In this document: positions 28,266 to 50,486 of the stretch, in pieces
Position numbering within the stretch: position 1 is the stretch's first letter
How the letters are laid out: each line of letters opens with the position of its first letter
From: Thermoplasmata archaeon
Lineage (GTDB): Archaea > Thermoplasmatota > Thermoplasmata > Lutacidiplasmatales > UBA184
NCBI GenBank assembly: GCA_035502475.1
Contig: DATJUJ010000021.1
Span: 5,098-69,097, forward strand
Length of the DNA: 64,000 nt
Direction: 5' to 3'
Notes under the pieces: model-generated
The model's database searches: none
What the model was told of the DNA's origin: nothing
Seen by the model: the letters and a program-made list of their open reading frames with translations, nothing else
Made by a program: the position numbers and the translations under genes

Positions 28266-29330
28266 TCAGGGACGCACGCGCTCGAGCGAGAGGAACCGGA
28301 CCGACGCGTCCGGGGCGACGCCGGCGACGACGTACTCCTTCCGGACCCCCTGCGCGACGCGGACCCCGCCGGCGATCTCCGGCCACGCGGCGACGTGGGT
28401 CGCCGGGACGGCCTGGACGAGGTAGCGGGCGTGCGCATGCTCGGGGTTGCGGGGGTAGGCGCGGAAATGCGCCCCGTACTTGAACCCCGTCTTGACGACG
28501 AGGCGACGGCCCCGCAGCTCCCGGTAGGCCGCGAGCCGCTCCGCGAAGCGCCGGTCGAGCGCGCGGGCCCGTCGGTCGAGGCGCTCGGGCGGGACGGCCC
28601 GCCCCGACTTCGCGTCGCGCAGCGTGAGCTGGCCCGAGCCGACGAGGTAGGTCGCCTCGAGCAGGCTGAGCTCGAGCCGGTCCCCGACCCGGCTCCCGTA
28701 GGCGAGCGTCTTGCCGAGCTCCTGGACGGCCGCCGGATCGTGGACGGTCACCCGGTCCTCGGACAGCCAGCCCTCCGTCGGCCGGGCGAGCGGCGTCGCG
28801 GGCAGGGCGCCGTTGGGCGACGGACGACGGACCCGGTAGTACGTGAGGTCCGACTCCTCGTCGACGACCCCGATCAGGAGCAGCTTCTTCGCGGTCTGGG
28901 CACGCTCCGCGAGCTCGAACAGTCGGGCAAGGTCGAACGGGACCCGCTCGCTCAGCGCCTCGACCCAGAACCGGGACGGCGTCTTGTGGAGCGTGCCGCC
29001 GCGCGGCAGCACCGCGAACGCCACCGGGGGCGGGCTCGCCCGGACGACGTACCCGCGCTGTCGGAGGTCGCGGTAGACGAGGTACCGGACCGGGAACTCG
29101 GGATCGACCCGGACCGCGCGACGGTACACGACGGGCCACGCGACGTCCGCGCCCTTCGCGTCCGCCACCGCGAGGCGGCCCATCTCGGCCAGGTAGACCG
29201 ACTCGTACCGGTCGAGGGCGAGGCCGCCCCCGGAGGTCGGCGAGCCGAAGTAGCCCTTCCCGTAGACCTGGCTCGCTTCCGCGGCGTCGGCGACCGCGAC
29301 CGTCGCGTCCGCGCGGAGGGTCCCCGTCAC
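28266..29330 (-). CDS. endA: tRNA splicing endonuclease, two-repeat (alpha2 homodimer) type
   Basis: GTG 29330; N-terminal repeat ending VVDEESDLTYY; catalytic repeat KTGFKYGAHFRAY...HARYLV...QGVRK. Confidence 0.93.
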   Translation of the reverse strand: MTGTLRADATVAVADAAEASQVYGKGYFGSPTSGGGLALDRYESVYLAEMGRLAVADAKGADVAWPVVYRRAVRVDPEFPVRYLVYRDLRQRGYVVRASPPPVAFAVLPRGGTLHKTPSRFWVEALSERVPFDLARLFELAERAQTAKKLLLIGVVDEESDLTYYRVRRPSPNGALPATPLARPTEGWLSEDRVTVHDPAAVQELGKTLAYGSRVGDRLELSLLEATYLVGSGQLTLRDAKSGRAVPPERLDRRARALDRRFAERLAAYRELRGRRLVVKTGFKYGAHFRAYPRNPEHAHARYLVQAVPATHVAAWPEIAGGVRVAQGVRKEYVVAGVAPDASVRFLSLERVRP

Positions 29331-39468: not shown

Positions 39469-39570
39469 TGCTCCCGGCGGGAGTTTCCCCGCCCGGTGTT
39501 GGCCGGTCGGTTTTGAACCCGCGTCAGAGGCTCGAGAGGCCTCTATCCTTGACCACTAGACTACGGGAGC
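39469..39570 (-). tRNA. tRNA-Glu (anticodon CUC) with an intron in the T-loop; CCA not encoded
   Basis: Acceptor GCTCCCG/CGGGAGC+A, D-arm GTCT-AGTGGTCAA-GGAT, anticodon stem GAGGC/GCCTC with loop CT-CTC-GA, T-stem GCGGG/CCCGC; 73 nt after removing a 29-nt insert. Confidence 0.93.
39483..39511 (-). other. 29-nt tRNA intron at position 59/60 with a BHB motif
   Basis: Intron ACCGACCGGCCAACACCGGGCGGGGAAAC; bulges AAA and ACT flank the helix TTCA/GGAA; removal restores the T-loop TTCAAAT. Confidence 0.85.
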
Positions 39571-39690
39571 GTCCGGGCCCCGGTAGGGACCTCCCTCTTT
39601 GAGCCTTTCGACGGCCGGTGTCGTACGGGGGCCGCGGGCCGGGTTCCGTCCGGCCCGACCGCGCCCGAAGGAGGTAAGAGCCGCCGACCG

Positions 39691-48300: not shown

Positions 48301-50486
48301 ACCGGGCTCCGCGGCCGCGCGCGCTTCGAGTCCCGGTGGGCGGCGCCGCGATCGGGGCGCCGCTCGAGGACTTCGCGAGCGAAGAGAAGATCGCCGAGGG
48401 CGAGGCGATCCGCTCCCTCGGTCAGGAGCTGGACTCGTTGCTGGGGGTGCCGCTGCTCGGGCCGTCCAAGGTGGCCGAGGCCTGGGATGTGGGACTTCGG
48501 AGCTTGAGCCAGTACGCCGACGCGCCGTTCGAGACGCTGGTCGCCCTGCCGGGCTTCGGTCGACCGGTCGCGGAGGCGCTGCGGCGCAGTCTCGGGCGAG
48601 AGGTGCCCGAGCGTCCGGGCCGTCCCGCCCGACCGCCGCGGCCCGTAGTTCGCGTGCCGACCACCGTCCCGTCCGAGGAGGTGCTTTCCATGCCCGATAC
48701 GCCGCGCGAAGCTGAACCCACCCCCGCGCCCGTCGGAGCGGACTCGGCCGCGCACGTGCTGCCGGTGGCCGACTCCGGGCCGCCCCCGGCCCCCGAGCCC
48801 TCGCCGGCGGAGGCGGACGCCTCCGCTCGATCGGATCAGGAAGTGCCCTCCGGGCCGGCGCCGCCGCCTCCCGAGAGCGTTCCGACCGACACCGGAGCGA
48901 CGCTGGAGCTACCCGGCCTGCCCGAGGCCACCCCGATCGAATCCGCCCCCGACGCTCCCGAACCAGCAGCCGAGTCGCCTTCCCCGGAGCCAACCCCGTC
49001 GGCCCCCGACGCCGCTCCGGGTCCGGAACCGAGTCCGTCGCCGCCCGAGTCACCCCCGCCGACTCCTCTGGATCCGGAACCCTTGGCCGCCGACGCCGCT
49101 CCCTCCTCGAGCGAACCCTCGGCGGGCGCCACGACACCTGTGGCCCACGACGAGTGGGCGGGGTCCGGCCCGTCACTTCCCCCGGCAGACGCCCTCCCCC
49201 AGAGCACCCCGTCCCAGGAGGACGTTCCCGAGCGCTCCGCCGACGTCTCCGCGGCATCCGCCTCCCCCGAGCCGGCACCGACGGCCCCAGCATCCAACAC
49301 CGAGCTGGAACCCGTCTCCCCCGAGCTGACTCCGGCGCCTCAGGCACCCGGCCCCGAGGCGGAACCCGCCCTCCTCGACGCCTCGGGTGAACCGGGCCCG
49401 CCGACGGTGCCCTCGGAGAGCATCGAGCCATCGTCCGTGCCGGAAGGGCCCGAACCTGTCCCGACCGATCTGCCGGAACCGGAACCCCCGATACCGCCCG
49501 TGGCCGAGTTGGGGCCACCGAGCCCGGAGACGTCGCTCGGCCCAACCGCCGATCCGTCGCCCGAAGGCCAGGAGATCGGGCGGTCCGGGCCCGAGGGTCC
49601 GCCGGGCGACGCGATGAGGCCGGAGCCCGAGCCCCGAACCGAGACCGGCACGCCCGAAGCGCCGGGATCCGGAGCCATGACCGAGGCTGAGGCCCCCGGC
49701 CCGTCGGAGTCTCCGGTCGCCACGACCTCAGAGTTGGAACCCGAGGCCCCGTCCTCGGCCGGACCTCCGGCCTCTCCCGGTCCGGGGGCCGAGATGGCCG
49801 CGCCGGTCAACCCCCCAGAGGAGGCCGCGATCCCCCCGGCCCCGGAACCTCCCGACGAGCCGACGGTCCCGGACCTTGCCCCGACCCTGCCGGCGGTCCC
49901 AGCGCCGGCCTTCCCCGCTGCCGAGCCTCCGGTCGCGCCCCAGCCGACCGCTCTCCCTCCACCGCCCACCCCGCCGGAGCCCCCGATCGCGCCCCCGGCT
50001 CTCGCGCCGTCGCCCGCGGGGGGTATCGAGATCGATGTCGGCAAGGCGATCGTCCCCTCGCTGCAGCCGTTCCTCGAAGCGACCGCCGCGGGCCATCGCG
50101 GGGTCTGCCTCGTTCGGGAGTCCCCCGAGCGTCTCCGGGCGCACATCGGGAGTCGGCCCGTCGACATCTACTGGCTGTCGAACCTGGGCCGGGGCCTCTC
50201 GCTGAAGCCCAGCGACCTCGAGGGGATCGGCGCGTTCTGGGAGCGCTCGCTGGCCGAGGACCGGGTCACGGCCTTTTACCTCGAGGGGATCGAATACCTC
50301 GTCCGACTGCACGGGATCGACCGGGTGCTGGATCGGTTGGTCGCCTTCGACGCGTCCGCGCGGGCCCACGAGGCGCGGGTCTGGTTGCACCTGAATCCCG
50401 ATCTCATCCCCGCCCCGGATCTCGAGCGGATCCGGGGTACGCTTCGAGGAACCGGGGCCGGTAGCCCTCCCGGCGCCCCCAACTAG
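45345..50486 (+). CDS. IleRS-like pseudo-synthetase fused to HhH repeats, a Pro/Glu/Ala-rich linker and a C-terminal DUF835-like domain
   Basis: Collinear IleRS elements (LGIWV, CPNC, CP1 WVDAPW and GTGIVPLVPGHGATD, PHCAIC, FGADAVR, LAPIVPHTAE) with no HIGH or KMSKS; LLGVPLLGP/LVALPGFG HhH; C-terminal CLVRESP..YWLS..PSDLE..LEGIEYLV. Confidence 0.8.
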   Translation: MVDLSETYDPAACERDAQSLWAGRRFRAPDGTVGAGEGPRVWQFEGTFAPGDRPELVAQRAVAADVDARYLAIAGRRAVGTLRGETFRGVNPSPEFGSVLASLGIWVGGSGGLPWDGDDRHDGVQRIVSNLAKAGIFVLHDGPLRVCPNCAAPRSPGRLVYRDELGPTYLVRFAVTIREREAHALAWVDAPWRVLGTSALLVRPDALYVLARYRRKDAEEYVVTSLSSLARLEAWIPGAEFEVIDQFPGRELQSLPYAYPLRHEFPMGGTLAAPAGTFQGTTEVSDTGTGIVPLVPGHGATDAPIAEKLGIPGWPLVTLRGRMDILLLHKYSGLDLRTADEFVIRDLVESGAIFAELKVRRGVPHCAICGTATVWLPCRTWCLEPGRLPPLLAREYARLLPTAPRLSQIEVAAWPVSESTTTREPEGITLRECNLCERLAPPDAPPVCPCGGRTKPVSRHLLPSIGGAIAGWARRNPLPPSDAIRLYLGDRRRAPKLVHHLTAIAGLDGPVGEIGLTLLPTTSAEDLTGLLSQFGADAVRAALLRTEGLESPSATLPERCAEERRRLERWWRQARRVLQACDPAMLAAFAGPMAASLDGLETLDRAFVARWERVRLRALAEFDRWSATHAFREVTRFLETDLPFYLDLVKGRLASPGSPPTKRAALRTLVHVLRGSTVLLAPIVPHTAEAIHRVIVPDRSSLFEEPPVAVDRSLLADETARAWERWRSSVRAVRRFLVRRGLARDTILPKVVLVLPNEEEAGRYRGELPVLRALLGASEVEIASPQRPWAGRRRELRPVDSEIQRVYPQYASQMVALLRRMPPRRAQASVNGDLSVVIGSNSYRIAPEMVGYVDLLPDRVVPAPWGLGEMYIELPADAGAGAANVPPLSPDAFWLVRRLARRLARAPPEPEGRKRVAIVFAADPLASELLQSRGPIARYLDLEELRVVTAVEEVAPAGRSRGRTRTGARWWFDVPGAPAGRRPEKHRAPRPRALRVPVGGAAIGAPLEDFASEEKIAEGEAIRSLGQELDSLLGVPLLGPSKVAEAWDVGLRSLSQYADAPFETLVALPGFGRPVAEALRRSLGREVPERPGRPARPPRPVVRVPTTVPSEEVLSMPDTPREAEPTPAPVGADSAAHVLPVADSGPPPAPEPSPAEADASARSDQEVPSGPAPPPPESVPTDTGATLELPGLPEATPIESAPDAPEPAAESPSPEPTPSAPDAAPGPEPSPSPPESPPPTPLDPEPLAADAAPSSSEPSAGATTPVAHDEWAGSGPSLPPADALPQSTPSQEDVPERSADVSAASASPEPAPTAPASNTELEPVSPELTPAPQAPGPEAEPALLDASGEPGPPTVPSESIEPSSVPEGPEPVPTDLPEPEPPIPPVAELGPPSPETSLGPTADPSPEGQEIGRSGPEGPPGDAMRPEPEPRTETGTPEAPGSGAMTEAEAPGPSESPVATTSELEPEAPSSAGPPASPGPGAEMAAPVNPPEEAAIPPAPEPPDEPTVPDLAPTLPAVPAPAFPAAEPPVAPQPTALPPPPTPPEPPIAPPALAPSPAGGIEIDVGKAIVPSLQPFLEATAAGHRGVCLVRESPERLRAHIGSRPVDIYWLSNLGRGLSLKPSDLEGIGAFWERSLAEDRVTAFYLEGIEYLVRLHGIDRVLDRLVAFDASARAHEARVWLHLNPDLIPAPDLERIRGTLRGTGAGSPPGAPN

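Follow-up and report, generated by a model that had tools for sequence, protein, structure and literature searches.

How a tRNA gene of a Thermoplasmata archaeon comes to be interrupted in its T-loop, and what kind of endonuclease would be needed to remove the insert, is the question raised by a gene for tRNA-Glu(CUC) in the window (the whole stretch of DNA that was analysed, 64,000 nucleotides in length). The diversity of archaeal tRNA introns is believed to have co-evolved with the architecture of the splicing endonuclease, non-canonical introns going with loop-bearing (alpha-beta)2 or epsilon2 enzymes, and the Euryarchaeota with alpha4 or alpha'2 enzymes are held to have few introns, all at 37/38 (PMC4090602, PMC5829648, PMC6379350). 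In this literature, a non-canonical position and a relaxed motif have often been merged (PMC5829648, PMC6379350). The first-pass annotation of the window described the gene as carrying a BHB intron between positions 59 and 60, called this unexpected in an apparent Thermoplasmata genome and implied an enzyme of broad specificity. The reading preferred here, to which a probability of about 0.9 is given, is that the locus represents a functional tRNA-Glu(CUC) gene and that an archaeal BHB intron of 29 nt interrupts its T-loop between 59 and 60.

The gene is encoded on the minus strand (39469-39570), and comprises 102 nt with the intron and 73 nt in the mature form, without an encoded CCA, as judged from its cloverleaf and a partial Rfam match. 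The acceptor strands are GCUCCCG and CGGGAGC, with U8 and A9 after the 5' strand and the discriminator A at 39469; the D-arm reads GUCU-AGUGGUCAA-GGAU and is followed by A26, the anticodon arm is GAGGC-CUCUCGA-GCCUC with the anticodon CUC, the variable region is UGAC and the T-stem is formed by GCGGG and CCCGC. The insert splits the T-loop as TTCAAA/T (the slash marks the cut here and below), between positions 59 and 60, so that TTCAAA (39517-39512) is separated by 29 nt (39511-39483) from the T at 39482. The 5' exon, tRNA positions 1-59 (39512-39570, minus strand), ends in GCGGG TTCAAA and is equal to the matching part of the uninterrupted genes of sister genera, and the 3' exon, positions 60-73 (39469-39482, minus strand), reads U CCCGC CGGGAGC A.

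The intron (39483-39511, minus strand) has the form A-CCGACCGG-CCAACA-CCGGGCGG-GGAA-AC and is missing in the orthologues of three genomes, G079, G081 and G103. All of its structural elements lie on the same strand. The central helix of the BHB is predicted between U54 U55 C56 A57 (39514-39517) and GGAA at intron positions -6 to -3 (39485-39488), and consists of U-A, U-A and C-G pairs and an A·G mismatch. The inner hairpin h' (39489-39510), with the strands CCGaCCGG and CCGGgCGG and the 6-nt loop CCAACA, is indicated by the minimum-free-energy fold and by compensatory changes. The 5' bulge, A58 A59/A (39511-39513), has its predicted cut between 39512 and 39511, at a junction set by the empty-site genes (TTCAAAT); the 3' bulge, A C/U60 (39482-39484), has its predicted cut between 39483 and 39482, from the geometry and the same empty-site genes. 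With a cut behind the second nucleotide in both bulges, the T-loop becomes UUCAAAU, the predicted spliced junction being ...GGGUUCAAA joined to UCCCGCC.... The coordinates and every structural detail of the first-pass annotation were found to be correct, and the cuts that it proposed as restoring TTCAAAT agree with the uninterrupted orthologues, which read TTCAAAT. An A-rich island, GAAAGGCTCAAAGAGGGA, at 39592-39609 of the minus strand, about 22-39 nt upstream of the gene, is a possible TATA/BRE-like promoter element; the genome has 72% G+C, and AT-rich islands are observed at a similar distance upstream of its other tRNA genes as well.

The expectation that standard tRNA finders may miss or mis-call such a gene was borne out. 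ARAGORN makes no call for the intact, intron-bearing gene and calls tRNA-Glu(ctc), 73 nt, on the intron-removed sequence, and the Rfam tRNA model matches the gene partially (model positions 5-66, 31.3 bits), because the start of the intron is forced into the T-arm with two mismatches. ARAGORN with introns allowed was not used for counts, since in the 72% G+C genome it reported false tRNAs by the dozen, with 'introns' of kilobase length, and still mis-called genes with T-loop introns. A vectorised SPLITS-like scan combined with ARAGORN recovered eight of the 11 59/60 genes described below, including a tRNA-His that is otherwise missed, and lost genes with imperfect inner helices. Two loose regular-expression scans, based on a split T-arm and acceptor pairing, were dominated by chance matches and were replaced by R1, a covariance model of the split T-arm. 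Gaps were misplaced at the 3' end in the MAFFT alignments A1 and A2 of the full T-arm and intron; R1 was built on the alignment A3, in which the hairpin apex was trimmed to equal length. The model scores 40.3 bits at the tRNA-Glu(CUC) site and retrieves exactly 11 true sites in the whole genome at 34-51 bits, the next match, which is the best non-tRNA match, having 18 bits. The split T-arm at tRNA-Glu(CUC) is not a chance occurrence. Elsewhere in the window, the tRNA-Pro(CGG) called by ARAGORN at 49618-49692 (minus strand) lies inside a long ORF and has no Rfam tRNA match at the gathering threshold; the G+C-rich coding sequence has probably given rise to a false call. A sound tRNA-Pro(CGG) gene is present elsewhere in the genome (C28:5710-5784).

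Taken alone, the gene permits two junctions, as TTCAAA-A...AAAC-T-CCCGC gives a 7-nt loop with the junction either at 59/60 or one base to the right, at 60/61, in which case the T-loop would be UUCAAAA instead of UUCAAAU. Comparison with the empty site decides between the two. Uninterrupted 73-nt tRNA-Glu(CUC) genes were identified in three sister genera of the family (G079, G081 and G103), with 100, 99 and 96% identity, respectively, to the predicted spliced product, and in all three the T-arm is GCGGG-TTCAAAT-CCCGC. The tRNA-Glu(UUC) of the same genome has the T-arm GCGGG UUCAAAU CCCGC, identical to that of the predicted spliced tRNA-Glu(CUC). As the empty-site genes read TTCAAAT, the junction is fixed at 59/60 and 60/61 is excluded; in addition, BHB cuts after the second bulge nucleotide lead to 59/60 in 11 of 11 genes. 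The 60/61 junction, rejected on both counts, is regarded as extremely improbable.

The same comparison bears on whether the gene is alive. No call by ARAGORN, a weak partial match to Rfam and the existence of a tRNA-Glu(UUC) in the genome are what might be expected if the locus were a decaying pseudogene or an assembly artefact and GAG codons were read by tRNA-Glu(UUC) alone. However, the tRNA-Glu(CUC) gene is matched in 58 of 61 independently assembled genomes of the same genus, nearly always in full length including the intron, and the three genomes without a match are 59-68% complete. The exons are nearly invariant in the 29 same-genus orthologues that were read base by base, with differences at one or two positions, and the intron hairpin is widely divergent in sequence and varies in length by up to 4 nt, the 3' intron segment (G/U)GAAAC being kept. 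In the 30 sequences, 92.1% of the cells are paired, as compared to 86.8% in shuffles, and the covariation score is 0.133, as compared to 0.040, neither value being reached in any of 500 shuffles; slid registers give at most 60% paired cells. The inner-helix pair 16:42, for example, is GC in 14 sequences, CG in eight, AU in two and UA in two. The first three pairs of the central helix are each present in 30 of 30 orthologues, and the fourth position is A-U in five and A·G in 25. Near-invariant exons with compensatory changes in the intron stem constitute a pattern unlike that of a pseudogene, and ten other tRNA genes of the genome, including the single-copy His, Asn and Lys(UUU) genes, share the same structure. 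No second tRNA-Glu(CUC) gene, intron-less or otherwise, was found in the assembly, which is 81% complete. A pseudogene or assembly artefact, contradicted by the comparative data, is thus rejected, with a residual probability of a few in a hundred at the most, and the interrupted gene is taken as the predicted functional tRNA-Glu(CUC).

For tRNA-Glu in the sister family f2, the segments that best match positions 1-40 (5' part) and 46-73 (3' part) are on one strand but separated by about 210 nt in G025 (C29:7602-7881) and about 430 nt in G027 (C2:133716-134213), a spacing that suggests either an intron of great length or a pair of distinct genes. The nucleotide at position 33 is near-universally U in tRNAs. 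The anticodon loops of tRNA-Glu(UUC), CCUUCGA, and of tRNA-Gly(UCC), CCUCCAA, carry C at this position instead (G000 C35:92776-92875, minus strand, and C1:39429-39531, plus strand; also L123 and L124, in G081 and G079, respectively); C33 in tRNA-Glu(UUC) is conserved in two further genera of the family, and tRNA-Glu(CUC) has the normal U33.

The intron of tRNA-Glu(CUC) is one of a set that has no mention in the first-pass annotation and was first spotted among low-scoring Rfam tRNA matches across the genome (1.56 Mb, 71.7% G+C, 81% complete). The search of the whole genome for further non-canonical introns, by the R1 scan and the low-scoring Rfam matches, gave 11 tRNA genes that are interrupted exactly at 59/60, by introns of 26-38 nt, namely Glu(CUC), Arg(UCU), Arg(UCG), Asn(GUU), Gly(UCC), Gln(CUG), Ser(GCU), Ser(GGA), Ala(GGC), Lys(UUU) and His(GUG), some of which, such as His, Asn and Lys(UUU), are single-copy isoacceptors, and two D-loop introns, in Met-CAU and Lys-UUU. 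At least four canonical introns are also present, in Met, Tyr, Glu-UUC (at 37/38) and Leu-UAA. Of some 40 tRNA genes detected, roughly 40% contain an intron and about a quarter carry one at 59/60, these totals being approximate for an assembly that is 81% complete. The D-loop intron of tRNA-Lys(UUU), of about 31 nt, occurs together with the 38-nt 59/60 intron of that gene (G000 C1:89457-89599, plus strand), and that of the CAU-anticodon tRNA has about 30 nt (G000 C8:14878-14980, plus strand). An identical tRNA-Met(CAU) with a 29-nt canonical intron occurs at the ends of two contigs (C16:2-107 and C35:146299-146404), probably because the two contigs overlap in the assembly, in which case C16 and C35 could be joined.

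All 11 introns share one layout, consisting of T-stem, UUCR, AA/N, a hairpin, four nucleotides complementary to UUCR, NN/U and T-stem, and in each of them the two 3-nt bulges lie four positions apart. The central helix has four pairs in five introns and three pairs with A·G in six, Glu(CUC) belonging to the latter kind. Position 57 covaries with its partner, G57 being opposite C in four of four introns and A57 opposite G in six and U in one. On energy alone, ViennaRNA predicts the full hBHBh' for the introns of the G57 type, of which Arg(UCG) is an example, and does not predict the weak central helix of 3 bp and A·G of the A57 type. In the Asn and Ser-GGA introns, the inner helix begins only past an unpaired stretch.

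The T-arm and the anticodon arm both consist of a 5-bp stem and a 7-nt loop, and archaeal EndA recognises the hBHBh' motif at whatever position it occurs. A single parse is common to 37/38 and 59/60: the outer helix is provided by the native stem, the first four loop nucleotides enter the central helix, nucleotides 5 and 6 make up the 5' bulge together with one nucleotide of the intron, and nucleotide 7 belongs to the 3' bulge. Canonical introns in this genome parse exactly in this manner, and those of Met(CAU) and Leu(UAA) are likewise closed by A·G at the fourth position of the central helix. As the T-arm matches the anticodon arm in stem and loop size and the intron again follows the sixth loop nucleotide, the bulge geometry of the 59/60 intron equals that of a canonical 37/38 intron with a strict hBHBh'. 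It differs in sitting in the T-arm and not in the anticodon arm, and for this reason the 3' segment of the 59/60 introns is fixed by the conserved UUCR (YGGA/RGGAA) and not by the anticodon.

In the proposed precursor of tRNA-Glu(CUC), U54-A57 of the T-loop would pair with GGAA of the intron to give a central helix of four positions that stacks on the T-stem, the native helix of 5 bp; a G+C-rich hairpin would be formed by the remainder of the intron, and two 3-nt bulges (AA/A and AC/U) would be left on opposite strands. A single alpha'2 EndA dimer would cut both bulges, and RtcB, the gene for which is present in the genome, would join the exons to form the T-loop UUCAAAU, the intron probably being circularised. 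We infer that the position is non-canonical and the motif essentially strict, which would make the precursor a predicted substrate of a strict enzyme.

The EndA predicted to cut the intron is encoded in the window itself, at 28269-29330 of the minus strand (354 aa; stop codon 28266-28268), 10 kb from tRNA-Glu(CUC), the tRNA gene lying about 140 nt past the 10-kb flank of the EndA locus; a search for the tRNA in 80 EndA loci gave no match. It is the sole tRNA_int_endo match in the genome, with no separate beta subunit gene, and Pfam identifies two N-terminal domains and two catalytic tRNA_int_endo domains in it. Among the structures in the PDB, it is matched best by the M. kandleri fused beta-alpha construct and by the A. 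fulgidus alpha'2 EndA. The C-repeat has the catalytic Tyr, His and Lys motifs (FRAY...H...VRK), whereas the catalytic Tyr is replaced by Leu in the N-repeat. As judged from its sequence, EndA is of the ordinary two-repeat alpha'2 type of the class. Broad specificity is conferred on the A. fulgidus enzyme when the loop of ARMAN-2 is inserted at E174-G176 (PMC3488258). No Lys-bearing insertion of the CSL/L1 or ASL/L2 type was found in the EndA of the window, in which YGSRVGD corresponds to YGSEKGD of A. fulgidus with the same length at E174-G176. Alignment with the EndAs of 13 other Thermoplasmata genomes revealed no insertion in the EndA of the window and no indel specific to the intron-rich family; the architecture of about 350 aa is common to Thermoplasmata families with 0-4 59/60 introns, and two Thermoplasmatales-like genomes have the known shorter form. 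In the EndAs of family f1, G-S-R-x-G occurs at the site aligned with the A. fulgidus ASL insertion point, where most other Thermoplasmata families have G-K-x-x-G, a family-specific shift of a basic residue with the length unchanged.

These data allow another account to be weighed, according to which the 59/60 introns are processed only because the alpha'2 EndA of Thermoplasmata has become less specific than its counterparts in A. fulgidus and T. acidophilum, so that a change in the enzyme and not a strict motif would be decisive. The A·G closure in six of the 11 introns of the genome and in 25 of the 30 Glu(CUC) orthologues could be taken in its favour, although the same closure occurs in the canonical Met and Leu introns; the displaced inner helices of Asn and Ser-GGA point in the same direction. 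Against it stands the constant spacing of four positions between the two 3-nt bulges in 11 of 11 introns. On the side of the enzyme, the complete N- and C-terminal subdomains kept in both repeats, as against the truncated N-repeats of A. fulgidus and T. acidophilum, and the GSRxG of f1 as against GKxxG would fit an altered specificity. However, nothing is inserted at the ASL/CSL-equivalent position, no indel is peculiar to the intron-rich family, and the same architecture of about 350 aa serves families with 0-4 such introns. A broadened EndA is accordingly considered rather unlikely. The need for a CSL/ASL-type enzyme, which the first-pass annotation had implied, is rejected in view of the loop-less plain alpha'2 EndA, the hBHBh'-like, near-strict motif and the A·G position shared with the canonical Met(CAU) and Leu(UAA) introns. 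The preferred reading, in which an ordinary alpha'2 enzyme acts on a nearly strict motif, assumes that such an enzyme would efficiently cut a T-loop BHB closed by A·G. Two observations count against this reading: in vitro, the alpha'2 enzyme of A. fulgidus barely cut the relaxed T-loop intron of the ARMAN-2 pre-tRNA-Cys (PMC3488258), and the central helix of the A57 type is not predicted by ViennaRNA.

The intron of pre-tRNA-Cys(GCA) of ARMAN-2 (Ca. Micrarchaeum), which is cut by an epsilon2 EndA (PMC3239211, PMC3488258), is similarly a T-loop intron in an uncultivated archaeon outside TACK. However, its relaxed BHB needs the ASL loop (K161), whereas the intron described here has both 3-nt bulges and a four-position helix, and the EndA has no ASL-like insert. 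The position 59/60 is among the listed non-canonical sites in Crenarchaeota (Yoshihisa 2014, PMC4090602). The 59/60 introns of Thermoproteales resemble the present ones in site, BHB logic, short length (26-38 nt here), occurrence in several tRNA genes per genome and presumably the EndA and RtcB pathway. They differ in that the Thermoproteales have a loop-bearing (alpha-beta)2 EndA, with intron sites that are scattered and motifs that are often relaxed, whereas the present host is a euryarchaeal-type Thermoplasmata with an alpha'2 enzyme without the Crenarchaea-specific loop, and has 11 introns at 59/60 and two in the D-loop.

EndA homologues place the genome among MAGs from soil and peat named 'Thermoplasmata archaeon', including UBA184 and one 'Candidatus Lutacidiplasmatales' MAG. 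This is the high-G+C TMEG lineage treated in PMC9287336, in which introns are unmentioned. The number of R1 matches per genome is 1-14, typically 4-13, in the genus of the window, and ranges from 0 to 14 in six further genera of its family; apart from one weak match, none was obtained in two additional families of the order. The host tRNAs of the 59/60 introns are largely the same across the genera of the family, with Asp(GUC) as an additional host. The 59/60 set is inherited across a family of high-G+C soil and peat Thermoplasmata (UBA184/Lutacidiplasmatales-type). In a sample of the class comprising 141 genomes, at least one R1 match was found in 25 of 60 genera, with 0-4 matches per genome outside the family of the window; the counts for low-G+C lineages are lower bounds, as R1 was trained on G+C-rich hairpins. 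Twenty of the matches outside the family were inspected, and 19 are bona fide tRNAs with a 59/60 intron, the hosts being Arg-UCU, Arg-CCG, Leu-UAA, Lys-UUU, Glu-UUC and Ser-CGA. Closed genomes account for several of them, and in many a canonical intron accompanies the one at 59/60. The tRNA-Lys(UUU) of another Thermoplasmata family (L188; G215:C25:87228-87476) has three apparent introns, in the D-loop, at 37/38 and at 59/60; no euryarchaeal tRNA with three introns is listed in the published table of tRNAscan-SE 2.0 (PMC8450103, Table S7).

The same table gives 25 non-canonical introns in 6,970 tRNA genes of Euryarchaeota, six in 138 of Methanomassiliicoccales and one in 231 of Thermoplasmatales, so that precedents exist for non-canonical introns in Thermoplasmata. 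The last two orders belong to the same class of archaea as the window, and the 1-4 59/60 introns per genome found here are compatible with those counts; the tabulated values, however, amount to about 0-2 per genome and are given without positions, as against up to 14 at 59/60, about a quarter of the tRNA genes, in the family of the window. The statement that the intron is unexpected in Thermoplasmata thus holds in part: it contradicts the textbook rule of 37/38 only (PMC4090602), yet many Thermoplasmata families have 1-4 such introns per genome and a few are already tabulated (PMC8450103). A paper describing a family with 5-14 introns at the single site 59/60 was not found in the searchable literature, and a 2026 preprint on Asgard tRNA introns contains nothing on Thermoplasmata. 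Elements of this kind are known; what appears to be new is the lineage that hosts them, their expansion at one site and their occurrence together with a loop-less alpha'2 enzyme.

Within the family, Glu(CUC) is interrupted in the genus of the window and in one other genus (G106) and is intact in three others, and hence gain and loss of 59/60 introns are ongoing. Mobile, transposing tRNA introns have been proposed for Thermoproteales, the sign being near-identical introns in tRNA genes of different identity. In a comparison across hosts, most of the 59/60 introns are no more alike than by chance; the introns of G103 Ala(GGC) and G081 Gln(CUG) have a similarity of 0.71, as compared to a maximum of 0.54 in 14,060 shuffled pairs, which ignore the symmetry of the hairpins. 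The likeness of this pair hints at transposition of the kind proposed for Thermoproteales and may serve as a lead. A wider and distinctly tentative suggestion is that T-loop 59/60 acts as a second 'canonical' site, the only other ready-made 5-bp stem and 7-nt loop available to a strict alpha'2 EndA, at which introns may still be spreading, as the gain in Glu(CUC) within the family and the related sequences in different hosts might indicate, and may be kept by breaking the T-arm/3'-end target of integrative elements or by ordering T-loop modification.

In practical terms, tRNA complements and the tRNA-based completeness estimates of these MAGs may be understated where BHB-aware software is not used. 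For the biology of the group, a large and abundant soil lineage with a loop-less alpha'2 EndA and approximately 25-30% of its tRNA genes interrupted, nearly all at one non-canonical site, challenges the rule of co-evolution between enzyme and intron. It separates the non-canonical position from the relaxed motif, and leads to the prediction that a strict enzyme would tolerate any site that mimics the anticodon arm. Glu(CUC), interrupted in two genera and intact in three, provides a natural system for the gain and loss of introns in this family.
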